Below the pieces are notes generated by a model. It was not told the origin of the DNA. It did no database searches and worked only from the letters and a program-made list of their open reading frames with translations. From assembly GCA_045648285.1 (NCBI GenBank), contig JAZRNQ010000170.1, forward strand, positions 1,450-65,449: a stretch of 64,000 nt of DNA, given 5' to 3'. A program made the translations under genes and the position numbers. Below, piece after piece: positions 10,771-28,256 of the stretch (the stretch's first letter is position 1; each line of letters starts with the position of its first letter). This DNA comes from Bacteroidales bacterium (lineage in GTDB: Bacteria; Bacteroidota; Bacteroidia; Bacteroidales; F082).

Positions 10771-13700
10771 ATGAATGAGATAGAAGTAAAGAAATTGTAC
10801 AACGCTTTAATCCAAAAAGGCTATACCATTGACCAGATAGGTAATGAAAACACTTTCTTAAACAATATGAATGATGAAAACAAACGTAGGGATTTATACG
10901 AATATGTTTCATCTAAAGGTAATTTTAAAATAGGTGATTATGATACATACGAAAGTCGTTTGACATCATCTATAGAACAAACAACAGACACTATCGCTCA
11001 ACCTTCCAATCCTGTGGAGGATGTGAAGCAGGTCTACACTCCTAAATACACACCTCGTACTGAAGAAGTTAAGGAAATTGACATGATTACAGGGCATAAA
11101 ACTGAGTATGCTACAGGTTTTGGACAAGGTTTTAGGCAAGGTATAAAAGGTCTTGGTCATGGCATTCAACATTTCGGAGGTGAAGTATTGAATCTTTTTA
11201 CAGGCAGCACTATTGACGAAGAAAAGGCACTTGAACGAATTGCCGAACTTGAACTTGATGGTATTGATATAGAATCTGCCATCGCACCTTTGGATAAGGT
11301 ACAGAGACAGGTCTATGAAACCACGCTAAGTAATGGTGATGTGCAATTATCAGGCATTACTGACGAACAAAAGCAATATGCTCAAATGGCCTTGGAAAAA
11401 GACGCCATTAACAAAACCATCAGAGAGTATATTGAGAAAGCTGGCAGTCTTGAAGAAGCAAAATCAATGCTTGCTGAGAGAGCTAATGAAGAGACACAAG
11501 GAGATAAATGGATAAAGCAAGCCGCTAAAGGACTCGCAGAGCTTAAACCGACAAAAGGTTTTGGAGCATGGGTCGGAAATCTCGCACCTCAAATGATACC
11601 AGCAGCTGTTTCTATTGGTGTAGGTGCTGTTACAAAAAGTCCTACATTAACCAAAGGAGTCGGCATGGTTGGTATGGGAACAATGACTGTTTCAACAGCA
11701 GGTATGTCTATGAACGAAGCAAGAGAAGCTGGTGCTACAGGATTGCAGACATGGGCAGTCGGTATTGCTGATGGTGCCATTGAGTTTGTATCTGAAAAAA
11801 TTCCATTCAACAGATACACATCAAGACTTCTGTCTGGAGTAAAGAAAAATGCAAGTAATCAACTTGCGGATGCTGTCACCAGTTCCCCACAAGTCCGTAA
11901 TGAATTGGAAAGATTGTTACAGGAAGCCAACAAAAAACTTGGCGGCAAACTCTTCAACGGCAAGAATGTAAAAGATTTTGTAGGCGACATTATCGCTGAA
12001 GGTGCGTCGGAATTTACAGCGGAAGCATTACAGACCATAACACCTTTGATATATGAAAATCCTGAAGACTACCCTACTATCGGAGAAATACTCCGTAATG
12101 GATGGGAAGGAGCAAAAGCAGGTATATTCATGGGTTCTGTTCTCGGTGGCGCTTCAAAGACCATGGAGCATTACCAGCAAAGAAACCGTCGCAAAGAACA
12201 AGGTTTTGTTGATATTGTAGAATTTGAAACTGAAGATGGATACAAGATTGGTGAATCTTTAGGAATGACAGACAGAGGTGTTGCAGTGATTACTGACGGT
12301 AAAATCCAATATGTAATACCAGAAGACATTATCTATGATCATAAATTCTCATTCGAAGAATTCGACAGAGCTGAATTGCAGATGGAGAATGAAGAATCGT
12401 TCGACAATGGTTACTCCCTCAGTGAGCAGCAGGAAATGAACGATGCCCAAAACATGCTTAAAGTCAAAAAAGCAGAAATGATCCATACATTCGGTTTTAC
12501 TGATGAATCTGACATCGAAGCATTCCTCGGTGAAAATCCTATCGAGACTGTCGCACAAAGAAGACAGAATGGAGAAAGTGAAGAAAGCACACAGACTATC
12601 ATTGACTATCTCAACGCCAAAGCAACATACGACGGCATGTCACAGCGTGTCAGTGACGACATTGACGGACAAATAGAGCAAAGCAATGCGCTCATCGATT
12701 CTCATACAAACAAGCATACAGGCAAGATTCACGGAGCTGTATCTAAAGAAGACGGCAGACTTGTTTATATCGTCTCAGGCAATGTCGTTCCTTATCAAGA
12801 TGGTTCAGGCATCGACTTGCAGAATTCGGACGAAAACATCATCATCAGAGATGCTGAGACTGGAGAATTGAAACAGATGTCACCTGAGTTCCTTTCTTCC
12901 TTATACGACACACAAGACCCTAACGAGCAGAAGGAAATCAACGCCCAGCAGATAAGAGAAAAGATTCTTTCAGAAGAAAGCAACAAGATTGACGGTGTCG
13001 TTGACTTCAACGACAAGGAGCAGTTCCTTAACGAAGTTGCAAACAAGATTGCCATTACAATAATACTCGCACAAAGAGGCCTTGACGCAGATTACATCAA
13101 GACATTCCTTGGCAATGCTCAGATTGTCGAGAATCCTGACGGAACACTGACTTTCACTGACGGACAGAACGAAGTCGTTGTACCTAAACAGGAAATACAG
13201 CAGCAGGTTGACGCTAACAACATGCAACGTGCCGTTGACTTCAACGACAAGGCTAAAGAAATGCGCAATGCCATCCAACAGGCAACAGCAGCAACAGCAA
13301 CTCTTTCTTATGGAATGGGAGACAATGTTTCATTAAGAGACACTGACGGCAATATCATCAACGGAACTATATCTATGATAGAAGACGACACTTATGTCAT
13401 AGATTACAGCGACAATAACGGCACATGGCATACTCTTGATCTGACCAAACAGCAGCTTGACGATATGGCCGTTGAGCGCAACGAAACAGGAGTAAATGAC
13501 GAACCGGTTACGGAATTGTCACCGGTTGACATGAATAATGATAACACTATAACTGAACAATCTACCACTGACGAAGGAGATTTAACGCTACAATCTACCA
13601 TTGACGAGAATATTCCAACAACTCAGACTGTCACTCCATATATTCCTAAAGACGAATCCGGCAATCCTATTTACGAGCAGGCTGACAGCGAAACGGCTTG

Positions 13701-16700
13701 GGACGCTCTTATGGAAGATGCTGAAGGCGACGAAATAATGGCTGGCGAAGTTGCCAAATCAATGATCGCTGACAAAGAAGCGGAACTCAAGAAACTTGAA
13801 AAGAGCAAAATCAAGGAAGGCAAGACTCCTGCCGAGAAAATGGCAGCTCTTAAAGAACGTAAAGCTGAAGTTGAAAAAATCAAGCAAGATATCGAAGCAT
13901 GGAAGAAAATTGCGGCAGTTCCTATCCATAGACAGATTGCACAGCAGGAACGCATACGTCAGGAAGAAGCAGAAGCAGCCGCACAACGCAAAGCTGATGA
14001 AGAACGTTTGTTGGCTGAACGTAAAGAAGCTGAACGCAAGGAACAAGAAAAGCTCAACGGCATTCCTGACTATTCAGAAGATACTCCGCAGAACGCCCGT
14101 GCAAGAGGCTACAGACGTGTGAATGGCCATATAGAAGAACGCCAGCAACCAATAGAAACGATACAAGGCAAGGAAACAGAAATCGAGTTCAGCAACGATG
14201 CAAGACCTAAAGGTCATTATGCCGTGATAGACGCTTCTCAACTCCAGCCAAGCCACATTCAAGGCAACCGCAATCCTTTGCACTTCCTTGACGAAGCACA
14301 GCCGAAGGAACGCAACGACAAGGCAAGCATCGTTTCCGCACAGAAGATTGCAGGCAACATCAGACCGGCAACAATCACTACAGGAGAGACTGCATACGTC
14401 GGCACTCCTACTGTCAATACCCGTGGAGAGGTTATCCAAGGCAACAGCAGAAGCGACGCATTGAAACTTATGTACGGCAATCATAATGACCAAGCACAGA
14501 CTTACAAGCAATACCTTATGGACAAAGCAGAGCAGTTCGGATTGAATCCAGAAGATGTTTCCAATATGGAAAGTCCTGTTCTCGTCCGTATGCTTGATAT
14601 CAATGATGAGCAGGCAATCACACTCGGACAATATGTGGCGCAAGACACCGAAAGCGGTGGTATAGAACGTATCAAGCCAAAGAACGCAGTCAAGAAGATG
14701 GGTGAAGACATAGGTTCTTTTGCAAATATTTTGTTAAAGAGCAACGACGAAGACGTATCTTTTGCTGAGCTTTTGGACCAGAATGGTGTCGAGGTGCTTA
14801 AATGGATGGCTCAGAAAAGCTACATCACTCCTACTCAATATAACAGTCAATTCGACACAAAGGGAAGTCTTACAGCAGAAGCAAAGAACGACCTTCGTGG
14901 CATTATGTACCAAAGCATATTTGAAGGCGGGAACACACGTCTCGAAGAGATGTTCAACGCCTTGCCTGCAAAGGCACAGAAAGCCATACTTGCTACAGCT
15001 CACAGAGACTTCAACAGTCCGAATAGCGAACGCATGATTGAGGAAATACAGGACTCTATCCGTGCTTTCTATGCGCTTATGCAAGACGAACAGTTTGCTC
15101 AGGCAAAGAATTTAAAAGATGCAACAAAGGCTGTAGAAGCATGGCAAAAGCAATATCAGATGGACGATGTTACTGGAGAAGGATATCTTCCTTCTGAAAA
15201 ATTTAGTAACTTTGCATTGCACTTGGCGAAGCTGTATAAGGGTGAAAAACAATCAAACATCCAAGGTGTATTCGCTGAATTATACGACCTTATCCAAGGG
15301 ACCAAAGAAGATAATCTGTTTGAGCAAGCAGACAAGACACCTCGCACGCTCGTACAGGCAATTAAGGAAGTTTTAAATATAGATTATAATGGACAACGGA
15401 GAAATAATGTATTGGGTGGCGATAATAAAACAAGCCAACAAGGGCAACACGGACGCACAGGAGATGTTGCAAGCAGAGAACGAACTGAGAGCGGAGAACA
15501 ATCTGCCAACGATTCAGGAAGAACTGATGAAGATAGTGGAAGCTCAGCCTTTGAAACTAATAGACAGACTGAAAATGAGAGCGGAGATATTAGGACCGCA
15601 CAAACCGTACATCAATCCAGATCCGAACGAGAAGGACTTGAACAAAATCTTGATGGAAGACGGCAAACAGACGGCACAGGAATGGCTGATGACGCAGCCG
15701 GAATCATGGAGACCAGAAATGACCGAAGCGATATACGAGTGTTTGAAGAGGGGTTGGACGCTTCATACAATGAGTATTCAGAGCACAGCGAGAGAACTCG
15801 ACGCGCAGCGGAATCCGAAAGGCTGGTAAGCCTTGCCAAGCTGCACGGAATGTTTGTTCCTGCCGAAGTTATCAAGACTTTGACAGGTAAGCATCCAAAA
15901 CGCACAGGCGAGAGCTTTGTTTATATAGACAAAGAAGCAGGCAAGGTTACAAAGGTAAAAGACCCATATGCCAAAGCTGCTATTAAAAGCGGTGTTCAGC
16001 CAGAAGATGCTGCCTTTGAATACCTTGTACATAATCTCATATTCCCTGAAACAGCATATACATTTGAGGGTATCAGCGAAGATATGGGTGATGTTCGTAT
16101 TGTCTTATCACAAAGTTTCATTCAATCAAAAGGACATCCTACAAAAGAACAAATTGCCGAAGCACTTGCAGAACGTGGATTGTTCCCTGAAGACAAGTAC
16201 TCTTTTGGCAATGAGTTCGTGTCTGTAACCGATGTTGAAGGTGACAATGTTATCTTAGGCGAAGATGGCAACTTGTACTTCATTGACCCTATCATACGTT
16301 TCAAGAAGCCGTTGAAAGAGATTCTTGACAACTACAACAGAAACAATAACAGCACACTTGGCGAACAAATCAAATCAGCCGAAAAAGAAGTCAACACCTC
16401 TCCTACCGACAAACAGAAAGAAGCAGGCAATTACAAGAAAGGTCATGTTCAGATAGGAACATTCAACATTACCATAGAACAGCCTAAAGGTTCTGTGCGT
16501 AGCGGCGTGGACGCTAACGGCAGGAAATGGGAAACCACAATGCAGAACACCTATGGTTACATCCGTGGCACCGAAGGCGTGGACGGCGACCATATAGACG
16601 TATTCCTATCAGATGACATTGACGGATGGAACGGCAGCAAGGTGTTTGTCGTTGACCAGTATAACGAAGACGGCACTTTCGACGAACACAAGGTAATGCT

Positions 16701-19700
16701 TGGATTCAACACTATCGAAGAAGCCGAGTCCGCATATCTTGCCAACTACGAAAAAGGATGGGAAAAGAAACATAAGATTGTGGTCTCTCCTATCCATACC
16801 GAGAATTTTGAGAAATGGATAGAGTCCTCACATCGCAAAACTAAACCATTTGCGGAGTACAAGAGTGTGAAATCGGAAGAAAATCGTACAAAAAACAACG
16901 AAAATCGTACAAAATCCACGGAAAACAGCAGTAAAGTTGAGGAAAATTCGGTTAAAGATGAATCCAAAAATAAAACCATTGTCGAACAGTCAAAGAAACC
17001 TTCTTCCAAAATAGAAGACTTCGGAGAAAAGATCGGAGGTGCAAGAAAAGATGTAATCCGCAAATATGCCGACAAAATCAACGTCAACGGAACCACATTC
17101 GGTTCTATGTTCCCTAAACCTGACATCGACAAACTCATTGAAGCAGGTCTTCCTATCGACAGAGTCGCTGCATTGAAGTCCGTGTACGATAATGCAAAGC
17201 ACGAGTTTGAACGAAGCAAGAAGCATCGTGGCAAAGAAAGAGCATTGAGAGAAACAGTATTCTATGCCGTATTTGCGAAAGGAATATTATCTGGCAACGA
17301 GGACTTTGAACTACACCATGAAGGTCTCGTCTTTACAGAAGTCGGAGTAAAACTCGTGAAAGCAAATATTGCATTATATCAGGCGGTATTTGACAGATTG
17401 GGTGTTGAATACATCAAGACTGACCTAAGCGCATATGCAATCACTCCACTAACTGAAGAGACAAAGAAGAAACTGAATCTCAAGAGTCTAAATGAACATA
17501 ACGGAAAAATGCAGGAGTCGCTTGCCAAACGTAAAGGCACGGAACCGCCTGTATATAAAGATGGTGACTTAATCAACTTTATCGGAGAAAAATACTACAA
17601 TCCAAAAGACCAGTTCGAGACGCTTGAAGAGGCTATTGATACAATGGTAGAACGCATAGGAAAAGAAGTAAAAGTCGGAGAAGAAATCAAGCATACTCCT
17701 ATCTTGTATTGGAATGTAGATGCTCTTGGAAGAAAAGATTACTCCAAAATATTCATAGGCATCAAGGTTCACGGACACGGCATTGTTAAGCTTATGGAAT
17801 TCAAGTCAAGCAATGAAGCGAACAGTTGGATAGACGAACATGACTCCGACTTCCAACAGATGGCAGCTGCTAAAATAGAACAGCTCAAGTCCGACAAGAG
17901 CAAACCTTTGCCTAAATACCGTATCGACAACATATATGTCCGTGATAATAATGGTTCTATAGTGCGTTATGATGTATATGCGGACTTCGGTAAAGGCATA
18001 ATGCGTCCTCTCAAAAGTTTTGACATACCGGCAAAAGAAACATCTCAAGAAAGATTGAGAGCGCAAAGCGAAGTTTACAAGAATGAGGTGTTGCCATACA
18101 TGAATTCCGAAGAAGCAAAGCAGTCTGCTGACGAACATGCAAGACTCATACAGCAGGAGAAGGAATCCAAGAACAGAAACTACTCTACAGAAAGAAAGAG
18201 CCGTGAACGTGTCGGAAGAGACTGGAGAAACGGCAAGGACGCAACACCTGACATGTTTGTTGATATGGACGGTAACAAGTCCGTATTCGGATTCAGAGCT
18301 GTAGAGTTCGGTAACTATGTAACCAACAAGGAACGCCAGCAGTTCCTCAACGACATTTACGATGCGCTGATGGATATGAGTGATGTTCTTGGCGTATCAC
18401 CTCGTGCATTGTCACTTGGCGGACAACTTGCCATAGCAGTAGGCGCACGAGGCAAAAGTTCGGCATCAGGACATTATGAACCTGAAAAGAACGTCATTAA
18501 CCTTACCAAAACTAGCGGTTACGGCATACTTGCGCATGAGTGGCTCCATGCATTTGACAGATACTTCTCAAACTACAATCCTTCCGCCATCTATGTAGGC
18601 GGCGTTCAATACGCTACAAGCGAGGAATATAAAGACGATATGCGCCAGGAAGTCAAAGATGCATTTGCCGCATTAATGGATGTCATAAAGAAAAGCGACT
18701 ACTACAAACGTTCAATGATGCTCGGTGAATACTGGTCGTCTGATAAGGAACTTGCAGCACGAGCATTGCAGGACCATATCATACGCAAACTCAACGAAAG
18801 AGGTCAAAAGAATGAATTCCTTTCTAATCTCACCGCTACCGAAGACTGGGACGGCGAGGCTGAAAACTATCCATTCCCTCTTGGAGAAGAATCGGAACGT
18901 ATCGGCGAAGCGATAGACAATCTGTTCTCTGTCATAGAAGAAAAGGTTGACGAGAAAGGAAATACCGTCATGTACCAGAAAGGCAAACTTGTAATGGATG
19001 CCGAAAGCGAAGCGTTCAGACGTGCAACTGAAAGGACGATGAAGCAGCTTGAAAGCATCGGAATTGACGTTGAGATTGTTGAGGATGTTGCTATTATTGA
19101 AAAATTTGAAAATAGAGCAATTAGACCTAATTTTTCTCGCTCGGCAGGTATTTTCTATTCCAACGCAAAGAAAGCGGTGCTTGACATCAAGCAGGACAAG
19201 GCGACTCCGGAGCAATGGTTGAAGATGATTGAAAAGAACGGTGGACTTAAAGCAAGCGAGGATAGATGGCTTGGTCTTTCAGACTGGTTGAAAACACAAC
19301 AAAAAAGAAAGAATATTGATGTTCAATACGCAAAAGAGTATGATGGCGAAGCTAAACAAATAGCTCATGGAATCAAAGAGGGTGACATTTCTTCTATTGA
19401 TTTAGCTGCTGTAGAAATGGTAAAACTTGTAAAAGACGGAGATATATTGATACCTATCCCATCAAGAACAGGTAAAGCCACAACGACTCTTGCGTTGGCT
19501 AATAGAATCGCAGAATTAGCTGGCAAAGGAAAGGTTGCAGATGTATTGACTGGAAAGGAAAGAGAATCCTTATATAACATCAAAAAGGAAGGAAAAGAAT
19601 TACCTAAAGCGTCAGAACTTGAATTTGTCTTAAAAAATCAAGATGTCTTGAACGGCAACAACAGAGTAGTTTTTGTTGACAATGTAATGGGAACGGGAAC

Positions 19701-22700
19701 CACACTTGAAGCAGCTGTAGAACTTATTCCTAATGCTACTGCTCTGGTTTATGCAAAAGACAATTCTACACTATCCGATAAAAAGACTCTTACCAAAGAC
19801 GAAATCCTTAATTTTATAAACGAGAACTCTATACAGATTGAAGAGGTTGAATATGAAGAAAATCCAAGTTCGTTTGATGAATTAAAAGATGAATATGAAA
19901 GACTTCTTAGAGAAGAAGGGTATGATTATGCGCAGGAAGTCATGAGAGACCGTTATGGCGATGATTTCGATGTCGCTTTTGCTGATATGGGCGGAGAACT
20001 CGTAATAGACAATGAAGAAGCTGCAGCGACATTGCTTGGCAGTAACAATATCATCAACTCTACCCGACTTCAATACACCACCGAAGGTCTTGATAACAAG
20101 AAAGAAATTGCACTTGTCGTTCCTACTATAGAATCGTACAATAGTCATGACGAGATCCACTTCGGTGATGCCGGTGACGGTCGAGCTGTTGCATGGGTTA
20201 GATTCGGAGAGACTACGGACAGTGATGGCAAGCGTGTGCTTGTGATTGACGAGATTCAATCTAAGAGACATCAGGACGGAAGAGAAAAGGGATATAGAAA
20301 CGATAAGGTTTTGACCGCTCGTCTAGACGCATTGAAAGAAAGTGCAGCTAAAGTAGGAATGACATTCAATGCAGATGTTAGAGGTCGCTCACTTCAATTT
20401 CTTGACATGGAGGGAAATCCTATTGGGACAATAACCCGCAAGCCAACTGATGAACAAAGTGAAATAATGGCACAAGTAAGAAATGTGCTATTCACCAATG
20501 ACGGCGTCCCTTCTGCCCCATTTGAGAAGAATTGGCAAGAACTCGCCATGAAACGTATGCTACGCTATGCCGCTGAAAACGGATTTGATAAAGTGGCATG
20601 GACTACTGGAGAACAGCAGGCAGAGAGATATAGTCTCAGTAAAGCTGTAAAAAAAACAACTGTATCCGTTATGTCTGACAACACAAGAATGGTTACACTT
20701 GATTTCCGTCATGATGAAGGATATATGGACTTCAAGCAGATGCGTGTTGATGAAAAAGGCACTATCATAGGAGGTGACTTTACAGGTTCACAGTTATCAG
20801 ATATTGTCGGAAAAGAGTTCGCAATCAAGATAATGAGTGTAGAAGCAGAAAGAGAGACATTTACTGACAATGATTTAAGAATCGGAGGTGAAGGCATGAA
20901 AGGATTCTATGACAAGATCCTTCCTTCTTTCGTAAGCAAATACACCAAGAAATGGGGCGGTAAAGTCGAAGAGACCGAATTGCCTGAAACAGGTTTGAGC
21001 ATGCATTCCGTTGATGTCACGCCTCAGATGAAGGAAGATGTCATGAAAGGACAGCCGATGTTCCATAAAGGTCAGATGTCTTTTGATTTCTTGAATCAAC
21101 AAAATACACCTTTATCTGATACAAGACTGCGTAAACTTGAAGAAGGTGAAACAAGTAAAATCGAGAGAATCTTTACTGAAAACAAGAACTTTGATTTCAC
21201 TTCAGGCGAAAAGATTGAATCTATTGATGATGTCGCATTTATCTTCAAACAACTGGAAGATGAAAGCATTGAGAATTCATTCGCCGTATTGGTAAAAGAC
21301 GGCAAACCTACAGTCATACATCTCGGTATGGGGTCATACACAGCAACAGGATTGAACGGATCCGCACTCAATGTAGCTGTAGAACGCATACAACCTGACA
21401 AGATTTATTTCATACACAACCATCCTTCAGGCAATCTAACCGCTTCTCGTCAAGATATAGAGCTCTTGAACAGATTGAAAAGCACCTACGGAGATATTTT
21501 TGAAGACGGTATCATTATAAATCTCCGCTCGGGCAAGTTCGCAACATTTAACGCTGAGGAAAAAAACATACATGATGAGAAAAACATCGACAACGCTGTA
21601 CCTGTAAAAGTGTATTCTTTCAATAAGCAAGTATTTGAAAAGAATTATGATCCAGCAGAGACTTTCAAAATAAGGAGTTCATCTGACGTGGCAAAATTTA
21701 TATCTTCACATAGATTGGGCGAAAGACCTAAATTGGGCATACTTGTCTGCAATAATCAGCTCGGAGTCGTTGGCAATGTGTTTACACCATACACTAAGGT
21801 AACCAAAGAAAATGCAAAAGATATTGCAAAAGATATCGTTTACTATACCACTTCTATGGGCGGTACATGTGCTATGATGTTCGGAAATGCCAATATATAT
21901 GAAGTTGGAAGTAAACGTATATCACAACACGTTGAAGATATTTCTACTGGATCCATTAAATTGATGGATTATCTCAATATGCAGAAAGACGGTTCCTATT
22001 GGAGTGCTTCTGATGAAGGAGTCAGTTTCATGCGTACTTCAAGCGGAACAATATACGGATGGACCGTTGACGGCAAGGTCTATCTTACTAAAGACGGTAT
22101 CAACCCGAACACTCCTGTTCATGAATACAGTCACTTATGGGCAGAAGCATTGATGAAAAACAATCCTTTTCTATGGAGTCGTATCGTCAATGGTCTAAAA
22201 GACACTCCTGTATGGAACGAAGTGATGTTGGATGAAGAATATTCAAGCATTCATCATAACGACAATCTCGTTGCAAGTGAAGTGCTGTCCCGTCTTAGCG
22301 GAACAGAGAACTATCGCCGTACTATGGAAGAAGCACAAAGAGAGATTGAATCTGAAAAAGGCATATTCGCAAAGGCAGAGAAGATTACTATTTGGGAACG
22401 TGTAAAGCAAGCATTGAAGGACTTTTGGAACTGGGTCGTCAAGACCTACGGCACAAATAACATCACTCCTGAAGAAGCTGTCAATATGACCTTGAAGGAC
22501 TTCTGGAACGGAGTAAAACCGAAAGGTGCAAGAAGCATTGAAGCTGCCAGCGATATCGCTAATGCAGAAGAAGACGATGAAGTTTTATATAGAAGTGATA
22601 ATGAAGATAGTTTAAATAAAAATAAAGTTAATTATCCAGCTCAACGCAGACAGATGGTTGAGCATGCAGAAAATCTTGCAAAGAGACTGCATCTTGACAA

Positions 22701-25700
22701 CATCGAAATAGTGAACAGCGTGAGCGGTTTGGAAGGAAAGAAGAAATCCGCTAAAGGCTTCTACGACCCTAAGACAGGTAAAATCACAATTGTCATACCT
22801 AACAACACAAGCATAGCAGACATCGAGAAGACATTGCTTCACGAAGCTGTCGCTCACTATGGCTTGCGTCAATTATTCGGGGAACACTTTGACACTTTCC
22901 TTGATAACGTTTACAACAATGCTGACGAGAGCATCCGCAAGCGCATCGCAGAACTCGCCATTAGAAAGTACAACTATGATTTCCGCAAAGCTACTGAAGA
23001 ATATCTTGCATCTCTCGCTGAAAGCACCAACTTTGAGAATGCTCAGCAGTCAAGCTGGTGGCAAAAGGTTAAAGACTTCTTCGCTGATATGCTCAGCAAG
23101 TTAGGATTTAGGGATTTCAGAGGAGTTACTCTTACTGACAACGAACTTCGTTATATCCTATGGAGAAGCTATGAGAACCTTTCTTCTAAAAGACATAAAG
23201 GCGTATTCGGACAAGCAGCTGATATTGCGAAACAATATGAACTTGGCGTAGGTGACTATGCCAAGTCGTCAGAAAACGAAGATGATGTTTTGTTCAGAGA
23301 CGGAGATCCTGAGATTCATGAGAAGGAGTTGGTAAGAGACAAATACGACAGACGTATAAGAACAGGCTGGTATCAGTCAAAAGAAGCCATGCAGGATTCT
23401 ATGCTTTCACTCAAAGAAGCGATGAAAGATATTGCAGGTATGGAAATTGAAGATATTGACGGTTTTGAAAATGCCTATCTCGGGGAAAACCGTCTGTCAA
23501 GCGTCAACAAAGCGGAAGCAGACGCTTTTGCTCGCATATTGTTCAAGCCAATGCTTGATGAAGTTGCTAAATTAGCACCTACAGCAGCGGAAAGACAAGA
23601 ACTCGTTGACTATATGATGGCTAAACATGGTCTTGAACGTAACGAGTATATGAGACAGCAGGCTATGCAAAACGGCGAGGACGCTAACCGTGACTTCGCA
23701 GGTCTGACATCTCTTACAGGTTTTGATGATATAACAGCAGCGGAGGCAGAAGCGCAAATAATGGTTAATGAATACGAACAGAATCACGATACCACCGAGT
23801 TATGGGATAATGTCAACGCCGTAAGCAAAGCTATTCTTTCCAAAACATACGAATGCGGATTGATAGATAAGGATACGTTTGAAAACATTTCAAATATGTA
23901 TGAATTCTATATTCCATTAAGAGGTTTTGAAGAAAAGACAAGTGATGAAGCATACGCATATCTGTCACATATACACAATGCGTTCAATGCTCCTATCAAG
24001 AAAGCGGAAGGACGTACATCAAAAGCAGATGACCCGTTCGCATATCTCCAGTCAATGGCTGAAAGTGCTATAATGCAAGGCAACAGAAACAAGCTTGTCA
24101 AACAACGCTTCCTCAACTTTGTGCTTAACCATCCAAGCGACCTCGTATCCATCAGCGAACTATGGTTGGAATATGATAATGTCGATGATGAATGGAGACC
24201 TGTTTTCCCTGATAACATTGATACCAATGATTCAGGAGAAGTCGTTGAGCAAAAGATGAAGGACTTTGATGAAAAGATGGAGTTATTGTCGCAAAACGAA
24301 CCTGACAGATACAAGAAAGGCCGTGACGCCATCGGCATTCCTTATAGAGTTGTCGAGAAAAGAGACTTGCAGCAACATCAGGTTATCGTCAAACGCAACG
24401 GAAGAGATGTCGTGCTGACCGTTAACGGCAATCCTCGTTTGGCTCAGGCATTAAACGGACAAACCAATCCTGACAACGACATGTCCGGTGCTATTGGCAC
24501 AATACTCCGTAGTGGAGAATGGGTTAACAGACAGCTGAGCGCATTCTATACCACTCGCAACCCTGACTTTATCGTTTCAAACTTCCTGAGAGATATGCTG
24601 TACTCAAATTCAATGGCTTGGATCAAGGAATCCCCTAACTACGCATTGCGTTTCAACAGAAACTATATGATAGCAAATCCTATAACTATGAAACGCTTGT
24701 TGAACAAGTATCGCAAAGGCACGCTTGACACAAGTGATAAAATAGAAGGCATGTTCTATCAGTTTATGATGAATGGTGGAGAAACAGGATATGCCAATGT
24801 AAGAGATATTGAACAACATAAGAATGACATACGCAAAGAATTAAGAAGATCTAACGGCAGACTCAAAATTGGACGTGCGTTTAGTCTGTTGGCAGAACGT
24901 TTCGATGGACTCAACAGGGCTATTGAAAACTGTGCTCGTTTCGCTGCATTCATGACTTCCAAGGAAATGGGCAGAACTACAGACCGAGCCATTTATGACG
25001 CAAAGGAAATCTCCGTAAACTTCAACAAGAAAGGCAGTGGCTCAAAATTCTACGGAGAAATAGGGCAAACAGTTGCTGGCAATACTTCATCGTTAATATC
25101 AGGTTTAGGTCGCAGCAGTTATGTTTTCTGGAATGCAGCAATTCAAGGTACAACTAATTTCGGAAGACAAATCAAACGTCATCCAGCAAAGGCATTCACA
25201 GGAATAGCGTCAATGTTCCTTCTCGGTGCTCTTGTTGCTTTCTTAGGCGGTGACGATGATGACGACGACAATAAGAATTCATACTACAATCTTCCAGAAT
25301 ATGTAAGACGCAGTAATATTCTGTTCAGTGCAGGCAAACACTGGATTTCAATACCATTGCCAGTTGAATACAGAGCAATATACGGATTAGGAGAATTGAT
25401 GATATCTACAATTAGTGGCAAAGAACACTTAACTGACAGTGAAATCGCTGAAGCTATTATCGGCCAAATGTCACAAATACTACCTTTGGACTTCATGGAA
25501 GGCGGTGGCGATTTGAATGCAGTTGTGCCATCAGCCGCAAAACCATTATGGGAAGCATATGTCGCAGAAAAAAGTTGGACCGGTTTGCCTTTATATAAAG
25601 ACACCCCATACAACAAGAATATGCCAGAATGGACCAAGGCATACAGCAGCGCAAACAAGCATATCGTAAACCTAACAGCTTCATTAAACGAAGTAACAGG

Positions 25701-26214
25701 AGGTGACAGATATACAAAAGGTAATATTGATATCAATCCTTCAAAAATAGAATATGTGCTCAAAGGCTATTTCGGAGGTGTATTCAACACAATAGACAAG
25801 ATGGCGAAAATGGCTGAGACAGCAGCTGGAGAAAGAGAATATGACCCTCAAAATTTCTTATTGCTTAACAGAGTTGTCAAAGCTGGCGACGAGCGTACTG
25901 AATACAGGGCTGTTAATAACGAATATTTCCGATTAAAGAAAGAGCATGACGATCTTAAATCTCGTATTAAAAATTACGAAAATGATACTTATAATGGAAT
26001 ATTCGATTATGCTAACAAAATTGATTTTCTTTATAATTCTCCTGAATATCAAAGATACGAAATCTTTGAACTATACAAAAAAGAAATCGAATCTTTGAAC
26101 GATATGATAAAGAACACTTATGATAATGATGAACGAAAAGAACTTGAAACATATCTCAACGAAATCAAAAAAGAGATGATTGAAGAAATGAACAAGACAC
26201 GCAAACGTGCGTAA
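10771..26214 (+). CDS. Giant polyvalent (multi-effector) virion protein, 5147 aa
   Basis: Uninterrupted 15,444-nt ORF. It contains serial enzymatic motifs (listed as separate sub-features) separated by low-complexity and coiled-coil linkers. It lies between small virion-type genes and the portal gene. Confidence 0.85.
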   Translation: MNEIEVKKLYNALIQKGYTIDQIGNENTFLNNMNDENKRRDLYEYVSSKGNFKIGDYDTYESRLTSSIEQTTDTIAQPSNPVEDVKQVYTPKYTPRTEEVKEIDMITGHKTEYATGFGQGFRQGIKGLGHGIQHFGGEVLNLFTGSTIDEEKALERIAELELDGIDIESAIAPLDKVQRQVYETTLSNGDVQLSGITDEQKQYAQMALEKDAINKTIREYIEKAGSLEEAKSMLAERANEETQGDKWIKQAAKGLAELKPTKGFGAWVGNLAPQMIPAAVSIGVGAVTKSPTLTKGVGMVGMGTMTVSTAGMSMNEAREAGATGLQTWAVGIADGAIEFVSEKIPFNRYTSRLLSGVKKNASNQLADAVTSSPQVRNELERLLQEANKKLGGKLFNGKNVKDFVGDIIAEGASEFTAEALQTITPLIYENPEDYPTIGEILRNGWEGAKAGIFMGSVLGGASKTMEHYQQRNRRKEQGFVDIVEFETEDGYKIGESLGMTDRGVAVITDGKIQYVIPEDIIYDHKFSFEEFDRAELQMENEESFDNGYSLSEQQEMNDAQNMLKVKKAEMIHTFGFTDESDIEAFLGENPIETVAQRRQNGESEESTQTIIDYLNAKATYDGMSQRVSDDIDGQIEQSNALIDSHTNKHTGKIHGAVSKEDGRLVYIVSGNVVPYQDGSGIDLQNSDENIIIRDAETGELKQMSPEFLSSLYDTQDPNEQKEINAQQIREKILSEESNKIDGVVDFNDKEQFLNEVANKIAITIILAQRGLDADYIKTFLGNAQIVENPDGTLTFTDGQNEVVVPKQEIQQQVDANNMQRAVDFNDKAKEMRNAIQQATAATATLSYGMGDNVSLRDTDGNIINGTISMIEDDTYVIDYSDNNGTWHTLDLTKQQLDDMAVERNETGVNDEPVTELSPVDMNNDNTITEQSTTDEGDLTLQSTIDENIPTTQTVTPYIPKDESGNPIYEQADSETAWDALMEDAEGDEIMAGEVAKSMIADKEAELKKLEKSKIKEGKTPAEKMAALKERKAEVEKIKQDIEAWKKIAAVPIHRQIAQQERIRQEEAEAAAQRKADEERLLAERKEAERKEQEKLNGIPDYSEDTPQNARARGYRRVNGHIEERQQPIETIQGKETEIEFSNDARPKGHYAVIDASQLQPSHIQGNRNPLHFLDEAQPKERNDKASIVSAQKIAGNIRPATITTGETAYVGTPTVNTRGEVIQGNSRSDALKLMYGNHNDQAQTYKQYLMDKAEQFGLNPEDVSNMESPVLVRMLDINDEQAITLGQYVAQDTESGGIERIKPKNAVKKMGEDIGSFANILLKSNDEDVSFAELLDQNGVEVLKWMAQKSYITPTQYNSQFDTKGSLTAEAKNDLRGIMYQSIFEGGNTRLEEMFNALPAKAQKAILATAHRDFNSPNSERMIEEIQDSIRAFYALMQDEQFAQAKNLKDATKAVEAWQKQYQMDDVTGEGYLPSEKFSNFALHLAKLYKGEKQSNIQGVFAELYDLIQGTKEDNLFEQADKTPRTLVQAIKEVLNIDYNGQRRNNVLGGDNKTSQQGQHGRTGDVASRERTESGEQSANDSGRTDEDSGSSAFETNRQTENESGDIRTAQTVHQSRSEREGLEQNLDGRRQTDGTGMADDAAGIMETRNDRSDIRVFEEGLDASYNEYSEHSERTRRAAESERLVSLAKLHGMFVPAEVIKTLTGKHPKRTGESFVYIDKEAGKVTKVKDPYAKAAIKSGVQPEDAAFEYLVHNLIFPETAYTFEGISEDMGDVRIVLSQSFIQSKGHPTKEQIAEALAERGLFPEDKYSFGNEFVSVTDVEGDNVILGEDGNLYFIDPIIRFKKPLKEILDNYNRNNNSTLGEQIKSAEKEVNTSPTDKQKEAGNYKKGHVQIGTFNITIEQPKGSVRSGVDANGRKWETTMQNTYGYIRGTEGVDGDHIDVFLSDDIDGWNGSKVFVVDQYNEDGTFDEHKVMLGFNTIEEAESAYLANYEKGWEKKHKIVVSPIHTENFEKWIESSHRKTKPFAEYKSVKSEENRTKNNENRTKSTENSSKVEENSVKDESKNKTIVEQSKKPSSKIEDFGEKIGGARKDVIRKYADKINVNGTTFGSMFPKPDIDKLIEAGLPIDRVAALKSVYDNAKHEFERSKKHRGKERALRETVFYAVFAKGILSGNEDFELHHEGLVFTEVGVKLVKANIALYQAVFDRLGVEYIKTDLSAYAITPLTEETKKKLNLKSLNEHNGKMQESLAKRKGTEPPVYKDGDLINFIGEKYYNPKDQFETLEEAIDTMVERIGKEVKVGEEIKHTPILYWNVDALGRKDYSKIFIGIKVHGHGIVKLMEFKSSNEANSWIDEHDSDFQQMAAAKIEQLKSDKSKPLPKYRIDNIYVRDNNGSIVRYDVYADFGKGIMRPLKSFDIPAKETSQERLRAQSEVYKNEVLPYMNSEEAKQSADEHARLIQQEKESKNRNYSTERKSRERVGRDWRNGKDATPDMFVDMDGNKSVFGFRAVEFGNYVTNKERQQFLNDIYDALMDMSDVLGVSPRALSLGGQLAIAVGARGKSSASGHYEPEKNVINLTKTSGYGILAHEWLHAFDRYFSNYNPSAIYVGGVQYATSEEYKDDMRQEVKDAFAALMDVIKKSDYYKRSMMLGEYWSSDKELAARALQDHIIRKLNERGQKNEFLSNLTATEDWDGEAENYPFPLGEESERIGEAIDNLFSVIEEKVDEKGNTVMYQKGKLVMDAESEAFRRATERTMKQLESIGIDVEIVEDVAIIEKFENRAIRPNFSRSAGIFYSNAKKAVLDIKQDKATPEQWLKMIEKNGGLKASEDRWLGLSDWLKTQQKRKNIDVQYAKEYDGEAKQIAHGIKEGDISSIDLAAVEMVKLVKDGDILIPIPSRTGKATTTLALANRIAELAGKGKVADVLTGKERESLYNIKKEGKELPKASELEFVLKNQDVLNGNNRVVFVDNVMGTGTTLEAAVELIPNATALVYAKDNSTLSDKKTLTKDEILNFINENSIQIEEVEYEENPSSFDELKDEYERLLREEGYDYAQEVMRDRYGDDFDVAFADMGGELVIDNEEAAATLLGSNNIINSTRLQYTTEGLDNKKEIALVVPTIESYNSHDEIHFGDAGDGRAVAWVRFGETTDSDGKRVLVIDEIQSKRHQDGREKGYRNDKVLTARLDALKESAAKVGMTFNADVRGRSLQFLDMEGNPIGTITRKPTDEQSEIMAQVRNVLFTNDGVPSAPFEKNWQELAMKRMLRYAAENGFDKVAWTTGEQQAERYSLSKAVKKTTVSVMSDNTRMVTLDFRHDEGYMDFKQMRVDEKGTIIGGDFTGSQLSDIVGKEFAIKIMSVEAERETFTDNDLRIGGEGMKGFYDKILPSFVSKYTKKWGGKVEETELPETGLSMHSVDVTPQMKEDVMKGQPMFHKGQMSFDFLNQQNTPLSDTRLRKLEEGETSKIERIFTENKNFDFTSGEKIESIDDVAFIFKQLEDESIENSFAVLVKDGKPTVIHLGMGSYTATGLNGSALNVAVERIQPDKIYFIHNHPSGNLTASRQDIELLNRLKSTYGDIFEDGIIINLRSGKFATFNAEEKNIHDEKNIDNAVPVKVYSFNKQVFEKNYDPAETFKIRSSSDVAKFISSHRLGERPKLGILVCNNQLGVVGNVFTPYTKVTKENAKDIAKDIVYYTTSMGGTCAMMFGNANIYEVGSKRISQHVEDISTGSIKLMDYLNMQKDGSYWSASDEGVSFMRTSSGTIYGWTVDGKVYLTKDGINPNTPVHEYSHLWAEALMKNNPFLWSRIVNGLKDTPVWNEVMLDEEYSSIHHNDNLVASEVLSRLSGTENYRRTMEEAQREIESEKGIFAKAEKITIWERVKQALKDFWNWVVKTYGTNNITPEEAVNMTLKDFWNGVKPKGARSIEAASDIANAEEDDEVLYRSDNEDSLNKNKVNYPAQRRQMVEHAENLAKRLHLDNIEIVNSVSGLEGKKKSAKGFYDPKTGKITIVIPNNTSIADIEKTLLHEAVAHYGLRQLFGEHFDTFLDNVYNNADESIRKRIAELAIRKYNYDFRKATEEYLASLAESTNFENAQQSSWWQKVKDFFADMLSKLGFRDFRGVTLTDNELRYILWRSYENLSSKRHKGVFGQAADIAKQYELGVGDYAKSSENEDDVLFRDGDPEIHEKELVRDKYDRRIRTGWYQSKEAMQDSMLSLKEAMKDIAGMEIEDIDGFENAYLGENRLSSVNKAEADAFARILFKPMLDEVAKLAPTAAERQELVDYMMAKHGLERNEYMRQQAMQNGEDANRDFAGLTSLTGFDDITAAEAEAQIMVNEYEQNHDTTELWDNVNAVSKAILSKTYECGLIDKDTFENISNMYEFYIPLRGFEEKTSDEAYAYLSHIHNAFNAPIKKAEGRTSKADDPFAYLQSMAESAIMQGNRNKLVKQRFLNFVLNHPSDLVSISELWLEYDNVDDEWRPVFPDNIDTNDSGEVVEQKMKDFDEKMELLSQNEPDRYKKGRDAIGIPYRVVEKRDLQQHQVIVKRNGRDVVLTVNGNPRLAQALNGQTNPDNDMSGAIGTILRSGEWVNRQLSAFYTTRNPDFIVSNFLRDMLYSNSMAWIKESPNYALRFNRNYMIANPITMKRLLNKYRKGTLDTSDKIEGMFYQFMMNGGETGYANVRDIEQHKNDIRKELRRSNGRLKIGRAFSLLAERFDGLNRAIENCARFAAFMTSKEMGRTTDRAIYDAKEISVNFNKKGSGSKFYGEIGQTVAGNTSSLISGLGRSSYVFWNAAIQGTTNFGRQIKRHPAKAFTGIASMFLLGALVAFLGGDDDDDDNKNSYYNLPEYVRRSNILFSAGKHWISIPLPVEYRAIYGLGELMISTISGKEHLTDSEIAEAIIGQMSQILPLDFMEGGGDLNAVVPSAAKPLWEAYVAEKSWTGLPLYKDTPYNKNMPEWTKAYSSANKHIVNLTASLNEVTGGDRYTKGNIDINPSKIEYVLKGYFGGVFNTIDKMAKMAETAAGEREYDPQNFLLLNRVVKAGDERTEYRAVNNEYFRLKKEHDDLKSRIKNYENDTYNGIFDYANKIDFLYNSPEYQRYEIFELYKKEIESLNDMIKNTYDNDERKELETYLNEIKKEMIEEMNKTRKRA
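11557..11800 (+). other. Giant protein: Gly/Ala/Met-rich hydrophobic (TM-like) region
   Basis: GFGAWVGNLAPQMIPAAVSIGVGAVTKSPTLTKGVGMVGMGTMTVSTAGMSM...WAVGIADGAIEF. Confidence 0.5.
14212..14700 (+). other. Giant protein: ParB/Srx-fold (ddrB-ParB-like) domain
   Basis: GHYAVIDASQLQPSHIQGNRNP...RGEVIQGNSRSDALKLMY. The GNxR box in a ParB-like context is recalled from polyvalent-protein ParB domains. Confidence 0.45.
15820..16310 (+). other. Giant protein: protein-kinase-like fold domain
   Basis: Catalytic-loop-like DVEGDN (D-x4-N, D1821/N1826), followed 10 residues later by YFIDP (DFG-equivalent Asp). Preceded by ...FVYIDKEAGKVTKVKDPY (candidate Lys region). Confidence 0.4.
16411..16860 (+). other. 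Giant protein: inorganic-pyrophosphatase-like domain
   Basis: GNYKKGHVQIGTFNITIEQPKGSVRSG...YGYIRGTEGVDGDHIDVFL. DGDHIDV resembles the family I PPase signature D-x-D-[PE]-x-D-x but has His at the fourth position. Confidence 0.4.
18211..18810 (+). other. Giant protein: zincin metallopeptidase (MPTase-PolyVal-like) domain
   Basis: FGFRAVEFGNYV...LSLGGQLAIAVGARGKSSASGHYEPEKNVINLTKTSGYGILAHEWLHAFD (HExxH at 18535-18549) ...DKELAARALQDHI. Confidence 0.55.
19341..19765 (+). other. Giant protein: phosphoribosyltransferase (PRTase, ComF-like) domain
   Basis: PRPP-loop motif VVFVDNVMGTGTTLEAAV, preceded by ILIPIPSRTGKATTTLALA. It lies between WLGLSDWLK and TLTKDEILNFINENSIQIEEVEY, which looks like an insertion into a linker. 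Confidence 0.55.
21175..21555 (+). other. Giant protein: JAB/MPN (RadC-like) metallopeptidase domain
   Basis: ENSFAVLV...IYFIHNHPSGNLTASRQDIELL (HxHPSG...S..D motif; His3549 at 21415). Confidence 0.65.
22021..22330 (+). other. Giant protein: second HExxH zincin-like motif region
   Basis: GWTVDGKVYLTKDGINPNTPVHEYSHLWAEAL (HEYSH at 22120-22134). Confidence 0.4.
25192..25269 (+). other. Giant protein: C-terminal TM helix followed by a hexa-Asp run
   Basis: AFTGIASMFLLGALVAFLGG then DDDDDD (25252-25269). Confidence 0.6.
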
Positions 26215-26288
26215 AGAGTTAAACTTATGATGAGTGCTTGGGGTGTTACATTTGCACCTCGAGTACTCATTTAATTAAGTTAACAACA

Positions 26289-28256
26289 ATGCCAACAAAA
26301 AACAACAAAATACTATCCCTTAGCCGTGTAAAGCCCAAACAAAGTGATGACACGGAAATGGATAGCGTTAAGTCGGAAAAGAAAAACGACAACCGAAGGG
26401 CGTTCAATATTCTCATGGAAGCCCAGCATTATTGGAATATGATGGACGATTTCCGTAAGGAACGCGAACGTAACAAACGCTACACTTACGGCAAACAATG
26501 GGACGACGTAATCAATGTGGACGGTCGTGCTATGACAGAAGAGAACTACATCAAGAGTCAAGGCAATATTCCTTTAAAAAACAACCTTATCAGAAGGCTT
26601 GTCAAGAATGTATTGGGCGTATATCGCTCGCAATGCAAAGAGCCTACATGCGTAGCCCGTGACGGAGACGAACAGAAATTAGGTGAAACGATGTCAACCA
26701 TACTGCAATGCAACATGCAGCTCAACCGAAAAGATGACCTTTATCCACGCTGCCTGGAAGAGTTTCTTATTAGCGGTTTTGTTTCTGGGCGCAAGTCTTT
26801 CGGTTGGCGCAACGGCATGCTGGACTGCTGGACCGACTATGTACAGCCTAACAATTTCTTTATCGACAATAAGATGAGAGATATAAGAGGATGGGACGTA
26901 ACATGTCTCGGAGAGATACACGACATTACGTTCGGCCAGCTCTGCGAGCAGTTTGCCACATCTCCAGAAGAGTTCCAGAAGCTAAAAAACATCTATAACT
27001 TAGCATCAGACAGGAACTACCTTGCATCAACAGCGAAGAGTTTCGGTTATAGCAAGCTTGAGAATTACGATTTTCTTCTTACAACCGAACCTGGGTTATG
27101 CCGTGTCATAGAGGTATGGCGTAAGGAACAGCGTCCACGATACAGATGTCACGACTATAATAACGGAGACATTTACAAGATTAATATCGATGATTATGGC
27201 AGTATGGTCAAGAACGTTAATGATGAACGTTTGAGAATGGCAGCCGAAATGGGTATGCCAGAAGATAATGTTGCCTTGATTGAAGCAACGTGGTTTATTG
27301 ATGATTATTGGTATTTCTATTACCTCTCTCCTTTCGGAGATATTTTAGCGGAAGGAGAAACACCATACGAACACGGTTCCCATCCGTATGTTTTCAAAGC
27401 ATATCCATTCATAGACGGGGAGATACATTCCTTTGTCGCAGATGTTATTGACCAGCAAAGATATACTAACAGACTTATAACCCTTTACGACTGGATTATG
27501 AGAGCCAGTGCAAAAGGAGTGCTTATGATGCCTGAAGATGCAATTCCTGACGGAATGTCCATAGATGACATCGCAAGCGAATGGTCTCGTTTCAACGGTA
27601 TCATATTGTACAAACCAAGCAAGTATGGGAATATACCTCAGCAAGTATCGTCCAACTCTACAAATATCGGCATTTCTGAGCTGCTTAACCTACAGCTCAA
27701 GTTTTTCGAGGACATTTCAGGCGTAAACGGAGCATTACAGGGGAAACCAGGATTCTCCGGCCAAAGCGCAGCGCATTTTAATATGCAGACGCAAAACGCC
27801 ACCATGTCATTGCTGGATATTTTAGATACATTCAGCAGTTTCGTCATTGACGGAGCATACAAAGATGTGAAGAACATGCAACAGTTCTATGACACTAAAA
27901 GAGTGTTCAACATCGCTGGCAAAAGCGGTGCAAGCATCGTATATGACCCTAAGAAAATCCGTAACGTTGAATTCGATTTAAGCATAACCGAAAGCACTAC
28001 TACACCTGCATACAGAATGCTTGCCAATGATTTCCTGATGGAGCTTTACAAATCACAAGCCATAAGCGTAGAACAGCTTTTAGAGTTCGGCTCCTTCCCG
28101 TTCGCAAAAGACATGTTGCAAAGCATCAAGTCACAGAAAGAACAGATGGAGCAAGGCCAAGTTCCTGACGGCATATCTCCACAGCTTATGCTGCAGGCAC
28201 AGCAAGGTGCGAATATGAATGCTGTAAACAGATTGTACGGAGCAATGAGAGCATAA
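26289..28256 (+). CDS. Portal protein (putative)
   Basis: ORF 26238-28256. The likely start is MPTKNNK at 26289. About 655 aa, sited between the virion giant gene and the terminase operon. Called on size and position only. Confidence 0.5.
   Translation: MPTKNNKILSLSRVKPKQSDDTEMDSVKSEKKNDNRRAFNILMEAQHYWNMMDDFRKERERNKRYTYGKQWDDVINVDGRAMTEENYIKSQGNIPLKNNLIRRLVKNVLGVYRSQCKEPTCVARDGDEQKLGETMSTILQCNMQLNRKDDLYPRCLEEFLISGFVSGRKSFGWRNGMLDCWTDYVQPNNFFIDNKMRDIRGWDVTCLGEIHDITFGQLCEQFATSPEEFQKLKNIYNLASDRNYLASTAKSFGYSKLENYDFLLTTEPGLCRVIEVWRKEQRPRYRCHDYNNGDIYKINIDDYGSMVKNVNDERLRMAAEMGMPEDNVALIEATWFIDDYWYFYYLSPFGDILAEGETPYEHGSHPYVFKAYPFIDGEIHSFVADVIDQQRYTNRLITLYDWIMRASAKGVLMMPEDAIPDGMSIDDIASEWSRFNGIILYKPSKYGNIPQQVSSNSTNIGISELLNLQLKFFEDISGVNGALQGKPGFSGQSAAHFNMQTQNATMSLLDILDTFSSFVIDGAYKDVKNMQQFYDTKRVFNIAGKSGASIVYDPKKIRNVEFDLSITESTTTPAYRMLANDFLMELYKSQAISVEQLLEFGSFPFAKDMLQSIKSQKEQMEQGQVPDGISPQLMLQAQQGANMNAVNRLYGAMRA

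Follow-up and report, generated by a model that had tools for sequence, protein, structure and literature searches.

The stretch of DNA analysed here (64,000 nucleotides (nt) of contig JAZRNQ010000170.1 from a Bacteroidales bacterium, hereafter the window) carries a gene for a giant polyvalent protein of 5147 amino acids (aa), within which an initial annotation had placed a phosphoribosyltransferase (PRTase) domain. The domain was said to have a ComF/PRTase-type fold and to be inserted between two segments that are normally adjacent in homologous proteins. The motifs quoted in support, i.e. ILIPIPSR, VVFVDNVMGTGTTLEAAV and both flanks, are all present in the 5147-aa open reading frame (ORF). 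The insert itself spans 19294-19773; the coordinates first proposed for it, 19341-19765, lie within this range, with a frame offset of one base and a 5' end that starts about 50 nt too late. The features of the region are as follows, with PRT standing for phosphoribosyltransferase, PPi for pyrophosphate and PRPP for phosphoribosyl pyrophosphate.

10771..26214, + strand: giant polyvalent protein gene, a single uninterrupted ORF of 5147 aa
19132..19293 (aa 2788-2841), + strand: L element, FYSNA..KATPEQW..GGLK..ED.W.GLSDWLK, the helical N-terminal part of a conserved module of ~480 aa
19204..19293 (aa 2812-2841), + strand: left flank, TPEQWLKMIEKNGGLKASEDRWLGLSDWLK
19294..19773 (aa 2842-3001), + strand: inserted PRT-fold cassette of 160 residues, from flank comparison, AlphaFold2 and Foldseek
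19444..19467 (aa 2892-2899), + strand: ILIPIPSR, within the insert
19444..19482, + strand: strand and PPi-loop motif, ILIPIPSRTGKAT, family consensus PxP[SG][HR]xGxAT
19561..19587, + strand: putative flexible-loop motif RESLYNIKK, R.S.Y..K in the family
19666..19707, + strand: PRPP loop, VVFVDNVMGTGTTL, with the D-N codons gac aat at 19678-19683
19666..19719 (aa 2966-2983), + strand: VVFVDNVMGTGTTLEAAV, spanning the PRPP loop
19774..19785 (aa 3002-3005), + strand: SDKK, ancestral linker kept at the distal junction, from flank comparison
19786..19854 (aa 3006-3028), + strand: right flank, TLTKDEILNFINENSIQIEEVEY
19786..21069 (aa 3006-3433), + strand: R part of the host module, TLTKDEILNF to GQPMFHK, conserved in 120/120 homologues

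A database search with residues 2700-3250 returned 922 giant relatives, and the best 120 of these 922 were analysed: the two flanks and the segment between them were each submitted separately to BLAST, and the junctions were then projected onto the 120 homologues. The L and R parts form a single co-inherited unit of 419-661 aa, with many invariant residues, in all 120. The two flanks are indeed normally adjacent, since 3-13 residues separate them in 95 homologues and exactly 5, typically ASDKK or SSDKK, in 65. In 10 homologues, which make up the lineage of the window protein (P0001-P0009 and P0011), the spacing is 162-164 residues and a PRT-like segment occupies exactly the same site. It is 14-80 residues in five others, 128 in three (P0026, P0028 and P0085, with a different cassette) and above 600 in five; in the last two, which are multi-copy proteins, the flanks are out of order. 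In the window the junctions read ...SDWLK / TQQKRK...AKDNSTL / SDKK / TLTKDEI...; the persistence of SDKK at the distal junction, together with the adjacent flanks of most homologues, bears out the clean domain insertion proposed initially. The closest insert-free relative, P0010 (5692 aa), is 84% identical over the left flank and 93% over the right one; that so close a protein should lack the insert means that presence or absence of the cassette varies among near relatives. The relatives found in IMG/VR were only distant (34-52% identity), and the insertion is thus established at the protein level only. Taken together, the PRT-fold identity of the segment and its insertion are very probable.

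Two further observations concern the same junction. In P0026 (aa 1708-1835), P0028 and P0085, the linker holds a 128-aa minimal nucleotidyltransferase cassette, GSYARGE...DSDIDV, and not a PRT-like domain; cassettes seem to be inserted preferentially into this 5-aa L/R linker. The stretches of 661-1478 aa found at the junction in P0012, P0014, P0015, P0021 and P0039 were rejected as insertions: they are tandem duplications of the whole L-R unit, the module being repeated two or three times per polypeptide in these proteins.

The AlphaFold2 model of the insert, built on a 13-sequence alignment, had a predicted local distance difference test score (pLDDT) of 86.7 and a predicted TM-score (pTM) of 0.82. 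Foldseek comparison of this model with the Protein Data Bank (PDB) gave 41 matches at E ≤ 0.001, all of them PRT-fold proteins and nearly all with a probability of 0.99-1.00. Those at 1.00 comprised APRT of Thermus thermophilus (6fsp), 1vch, ComF of Helicobacter pylori (7p0h), PurF, PyrR and HPRT; a second T. thermophilus APRT structure (5zgo) and PurR were also found. The highest TM-score was that of ComFC, 7p0h_A (TMq 0.58, E 4.6e-5, root-mean-square deviation 4.2 over 167 columns), and the viral structure library BFVD likewise returned PRTases. In the window's copy, the PRPP loop is all that sequence models recognise: Pfam Pribosyltran (PF00156) gave 21 bits, under its gathering score of 26.3, and matched 11 of 13 diverse family members, at sub- or near-threshold level (best E 1.4e-6). 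NCBIfam yielded weak APRT, PyrE, PyrR and comF matches, the family profile searched against PDB sequences found PyrR and APRT with E from 0.0035, and the PADLOC model of ShosT matched the window domain at E 0.0019 and, again, 11 of the 13 members (best E 1.4e-6). The quality of the model, the exclusively PRT-fold structural matches and the consistency of the weak sequence matches show the ComF/PRTase-type call to be correct, and well above what chance would give. From the model, we confidently assign the insert as a predicted type-I PRT-fold domain, with an alpha/beta core and parallel sheet that superpose on solved PRTases; its closest solved relatives are APRT and H. pylori ComFC.

To define the family, a profile search was run against 1.84 billion representatives (clustered at 50% identity), and conservation was counted over 182 domain instances. 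The search recovered 2075 proteins with E<1e-3, of which 1048 had E<1e-10 and 302 had E<1e-30. The family is confined to mobile elements, either as a part of giant proteins or as stand-alone (solo) genes of phages and plasmids. Sorted by protein length, the domain instances in the retrieved proteins number 122 (1500 aa or more), 31 (300-1500 aa) and 29 (below 300 aa). Its signature consists of an N-terminal Tyr, an invariant Lys, PxP[SG][HR]xG, RxSxY..K and D-N-V..[ST]G.T. With the window numbering, and out of 182, the counts up to and including the PPi loop are Y2857 174, K2869 182, P2895 179, P2897 180 and G2901 181; in the putative flexible loop they are R2931 163 (His in 18), S2933 158, Y2935 160 and K2938 180; in the PRPP loop, they are D2970 182, N2971 180 (Gly in 2), V2972 174, G2976 181 and T2978 179. 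The loop residue that follows strand 2 is R2899 in the window and, in the family, His in 128 instances, Arg in 47 and Ser in five; R2931, with its Arg in 163/182, is a second candidate for the conserved loop Arg that polyvalent PRTases share with ComFC.

The family PRPP loop is thus D-N-V-x-x-[ST]-G-x-T instead of the canonical acidic pair, VVFV-DN-VMGTGTT being the version present in the window. The 5'-phosphate-binding half of the loop, [ST]-G-x-[ST] after a hydrophobic strand, is present and in register with those of APRT and PyrR. According to the initial annotation, a loop lacking the acidic residues needed for PRPP and Mg binding would speak against a PRTase. The first of these is there, as D2970; the second is not, being replaced by Asn, as in 180 of the 182 instances. 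No DD-type PRPP loop was found among 265 retrieved proteins; the family-wide D-N loop is new. The invariance of the Asn across the family indicates a selected variant and not decay. Uracil PRTases are active with one Asp in their PRPP loop (D-P), and therefore a missing second acid does not by itself exclude catalysis. A D-G loop is seen in two solo members, from a Teredinibacter plasmid (L001 5992-6570) and from Marinagarivorans (P0300), with the sequences VVLIDGVCDTGAT and IILIDGVCATGIT.

The base composition of the insert and its phylogeny bear on its origin. Its GC content is 0.367, and 0.237 at third codon positions (GC3), against 0.418 and 0.389 for the ORF. This GC3 is the lowest of all 480-nt windows across the 15.4-kb ORF; the lowest total GC lies elsewhere, at about 25591-26190. 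In a tree of the 182 domain instances the ten same-site inserts make up one clade, with a weakly supported node (0.49) joining P0011 to the others, and the sisters of this clade are solo proteins of 154-209 aa (SH-like support 0.86-0.92). The lowest GC3 and the solo nearest relatives point to a horizontally acquired cassette, which most likely came from a solo member of the family on a phage or plasmid. It was placed precisely in the linker of 5 residues that joins the helical L element to the remainder of the ~480-aa module. Ancestral presence with loss elsewhere was rejected in view of the distribution (10/120), the GC3 anomaly and the solo sister sequences.

Several known systems resemble the domain in one way or another. 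A PRTase domain has already been described in polyvalent proteins, in phage and plasmid forms and with solo relatives, as a distinct group of the superfamily (Iyer et al. 2017, J Bacteriol 199:e00245-17, PMC5512222). These polyvalent PRTases possess a "characteristic catalytic DD motif", have an Arg in common with ComFC, are found mainly in Proteobacteria and Verrucomicrobia, mostly fused to MuF, and have a role termed "enigmatic", for which nucleotide production or sensing at DNA entry was proposed (PMC5512222). The domain type is therefore known: the window's copy is likewise PRT-fold and ComFC-like, carried by giant proteins of phages or conjugative elements and accompanied by solo versions in the same elements. 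The D-N loop (rarely D-G), as opposed to DD, sets the window's clade apart from them as the paper describes them, and so do its occurrence in a Bacteroides phage and its insertion inside another module.

The second is ComFC (7P0H), which gives the best structural superposition, with the PRPP loops in exact register (DDIITTGTTL versus DNVMGTGTTL). The P-x-P-x-[HR] strand and loop of the insert family resembles the PVPLH motif of ComF. The differences are that the N-terminal 4-Cys zinc finger is absent, there being no Cys in aa 2842-3005, that the loop is D-N and not D-D, that the insert scores 16 bits with the ComFC model (TIGR00201, COG1040) for a cut-off of 233.55, and that it is not part of a cellular competence protein. 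H. pylori ComFC binds PRPP, AMP and single-stranded DNA (ssDNA), no catalysis having been shown, and its T165A mutation abolishes nucleotide binding (PMC9005727).

The third, APRT (6FSP/5ZGO, human 1ORE), ranks first by Foldseek E-value as well as in the NCBIfam and PDB sequence searches. The SR(T)G PPi loop of the insert resembles the S-R-G loop of APRT. Identity is however about 20%, the second acidic residue is missing, no adenine hood residues are identifiable, and the scores are far under the family cut-offs. Uracil PRTase is comparable by its single-acid PRPP loop, and one family member matches Pfam UPRTase (E 0.006); yet the sequences are not specifically related, and Pro stands in its loop where the window has Asn. 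Lastly, ShosT, of the ShosTA defence system (PDB 8ZVB/8ZVC), is a toxin made of a PRTase and a pyrophosphatase, non-toxic when mutated to D331A/D332A and with an unknown acceptor (PMC11961720). Like the window protein, it combines a PRT domain with a pyrophosphatase in one polypeptide; its PRT domain acts in phage-host conflict and binds PRPP. Unlike the window domain, it needs D331/D332, and it is a toxin of the host and not a virion protein of a phage. The similarity reaches only E 1e-3 to 1e-6, and the pyrophosphatase of ShosT is an adjacent Rossmann-type hydrolase whereas that of the window is a polyvalent-type InPase located 950 residues away.

The other features of the giant protein and the neighbouring genes are listed below.

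7073-7885, upstream of the giant gene: integrase-like ORF of only 270 aa
aa 1144-1275 of the giant protein: ddrB-ParB domain (Pfam)
aa 1680-1845 of the giant protein: Kinase-PolyVal domain (Pfam)
16411..16824 (aa 1881-2018), + strand: InPase (inorganic pyrophosphatase) domain (Pfam), in the same polypeptide as the insert
26238..28256, + strand: portal protein gene, directly downstream of the giant gene

The giant protein also contains the Pfam domains LPD5, LPD1 and RadC/JAB, with LPD38 near the C-terminus, and the whole set has the hallmarks of a polyvalent protein. Genes for a large terminase and a major head protein are close by, and the window's capsid protein shares 74% identity with its counterparts in BKO1-TP3 and BS-TP4, two temperate Bacteroides phages. 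The integrase, portal, terminase and head genes and the capsid identity indicate that the window is a Bacteroides phage or prophage with a giant effector protein encoded in its head module. The adjoining portal gene is the head-module context expected for virion-packaged polyvalent proteins, and by analogy with what Iyer et al. proposed for the class, the giant protein is presumably packaged in the head and ejected with the DNA. No match was obtained in the cultured Bacteroides phages BKO1-TP3, BS-TP4 and BF1-TP2, either with the domain-plus-flanks query or with the R module. Among deposited phage and plasmid records, only one phage and two plasmid records matched the domain.

Other giant proteins carry the domain simply as one module in the chain: it is followed by an LPD3 module in 75/120 of them and often preceded by a zincin-like (HEYTHLW) or ART-PolyVal module, as in P0017 (aa 3199-3366) and P0074 (aa 2497-2666). 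The cassette position within the L/R linker is peculiar to the window's clade. Some giants (P0121-P0126 and P0094) have two D-N PRT-like copies. As for the solo members, they are annotated "phosphoribosyltransferase" or "predicted amidophosphoribosyltransferase" and their surroundings are establishment or early-function contexts. One (within L021 103-4154) lies directly behind the genes for SSB and two orphan DNA methyltransferases (N6/N4 and C5); another, on a 68-kb phage contig (L019 1-16504), is accompanied by RNA ligase, Thg1, NADAR, RNase T-like and SMC-like genes and by the gene for a 2665-aa protein. The solo relative of the Teredinibacter plasmid sits within an array of small genes. 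On the Treponema plasmid pTRESU01, the match is inside an "ATP-binding protein" of about 957 aa, next to ArdC-like, LPD16 and SNF2 genes.

Concerning function, the retained 5'-phosphate loop, PPi loop and one ribose-binding Asp (Asp2970) suggest that the domain would bind PRPP or a nucleoside 5'-monophosphate (NMP), and turnover of the ligand is suggested by the dense array of invariant residues (Lys, Arg, Ser, Tyr, Asp, Asn). We tentatively favour, as the best of several uncertain readings, a catalytic PRPP- or nucleotide-binding enzyme acting after ejection. Early in infection, on leaving the virion, it would carry out PRPP-dependent phosphoribosyl transfer to some acceptor; this would perturb the PRPP or nucleotide pools of the host, or a nucleotide-based response. 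The InPase of the same polypeptide could then remove the PPi, by analogy with ShosT.

A number of points weigh against catalysis after ejection. Packaging and ejection of this giant protein are deduced from the class to which it belongs, and an acceptor substrate cannot be put forward. In the PRPP loop, Asn takes the place of the second acid in the window, and Gly does so in two gammaproteobacterial solo proteins; the Pfam, NCBIfam and PADLOC scores are all under the curated cut-offs. The best structural match, ComFC, is without demonstrated catalysis (PMC9005727), and the D331A/D332A double mutation abolishes the toxicity of ShosT (PMC11961720). Lastly, InPase is not enriched in domain-bearing proteins: by a hand count, it is found in 11/30 of them versus 26/90 of the others, and in only 3/21 outside the window's clade. 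These counts led us to reject an obligate PRTase-InPase coupling as a general rule; the coupling is opportunistic at best.

Some of these points lend themselves to a different interpretation, possible but doubtful, in which the domain is a non-catalytic ligand sensor or a DNA-handling module similar to ComFC, PurR or PyrR. Through binding of PRPP, NMP or (p)ppGpp-type nucleotides, and possibly of ssDNA, it would regulate or localise the neighbouring modules at the DNA entry site. This main rival accounts for the missing second acidic residue and for the highest TM-score being that of ComFC, a protein that binds PRPP, AMP and ssDNA and for which catalysis has not been shown. It would also fit the solo relatives found beside SSB and orphan methylases, a typical establishment-gene set, and an insertion inside another module would suit an allosteric role. 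On the other hand, the many invariant polar residues (two Lys, Arg, Ser, Tyr, Asp, Asn and Thr) are more like a catalytic constellation than a binding pocket, the segment has neither a zinc finger (no Cys) nor another nucleic-acid-binding element, and most polyvalent-protein modules are enzymes (PMC5512222).

We consider it unlikely that the domain is a counter-defence enzyme, or a sponge, directed at a defence signalling nucleotide (ADP-ribose (ADPR)-derived, cyclic or a ShosT-type product) and not at primary metabolism, a counter-defence idea that the initial annotation had put forward as speculation. In its favour are the probable delivery of the protein by the virion as infection begins and the weak but repeated similarity to the PRTase of ShosT, which shows the host side using the same fold; a non-PRPP ribosyl ligand could also explain why the D-N loop is non-canonical. 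Against it, there is no similarity to known anti-defence families, and the domain is also present on plasmids and in many unrelated contexts.

An inert remnant, i.e. a decayed pseudo-PRTase that merely lengthens a linker, is very improbable: D-N in place of D-D and the sub-threshold model scores would agree with it, but about 14 positions are invariant across the 182 instances, the fold is predicted confidently, and the insert keeps 97-99% identity within P0001-P0009, against 69-71% for part of the R flank.

A bolder and rather improbable reading concerns the whole D-N(G) clade, which comprises at least 1000 cluster representatives. It may represent distinct, undescribed virion- or plasmid-delivered PRT-fold enzymes, separate from the DD-type ones, with a ribose/Mg site tuned to a non-canonical ribosyl substrate (e.g. 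an ADPR-derived or deoxyribosyl ligand, a defence signal), and the L/R linker may be a dedicated docking site for interchangeable nucleotide-handling cassettes, PRT-like in the window and a minimal nucleotidyltransferase in other phages. If true, the clade would give phages a new early counter-defence chemistry.

Besides the D-N loop, two aspects of the insertion are new: its precise position inside a module, for which relatives with a naturally empty site exist, and the use of the same linker by a nucleotidyltransferase cassette. Polyvalent proteins are thought to be a cargo injected by phages and plasmids to disarm the host, and almost none of their modules has been tested. Here, the 160-aa cassette is well delimited, an empty-site control exists (P0010-type) as well as solo homologues of 154-167 aa, and this combination makes an enigmatic mobile-element PRTase directly testable; the Asp-Asn loop and the two invariant lysines are the obvious residues to mutate. 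That one linker can take a PRT-like or a nucleotidyltransferase cassette shows that the giants diversify not only through end-to-end fusion but also through the insertion of cassettes. Even if the domain proves ordinary, annotation gains from its description, no Pfam or NCBIfam model capturing the D-N clade at its trusted cut-off.

The host L-R module itself corresponds to no Pfam family, and its profile found no match among PDB sequences. It is marked by the invariant motifs IDEIQSKRHQxGRExGY, PFEKNWxELAMKR..R.AAENG and GGEGMKGFYD. The AlphaFold2 model of the whole L-insert-R unit (646 aa) was mediocre (pLDDT 67.4, pTM 0.48), and Foldseek gave no match to it at E ≤ 0.001 except APRT, recovered for the insert. 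Its low-probability matches were to GNAT-like proteins (SSAT, the C-terminal domain of ICL2, NAT10) and to SRP-GTPase.

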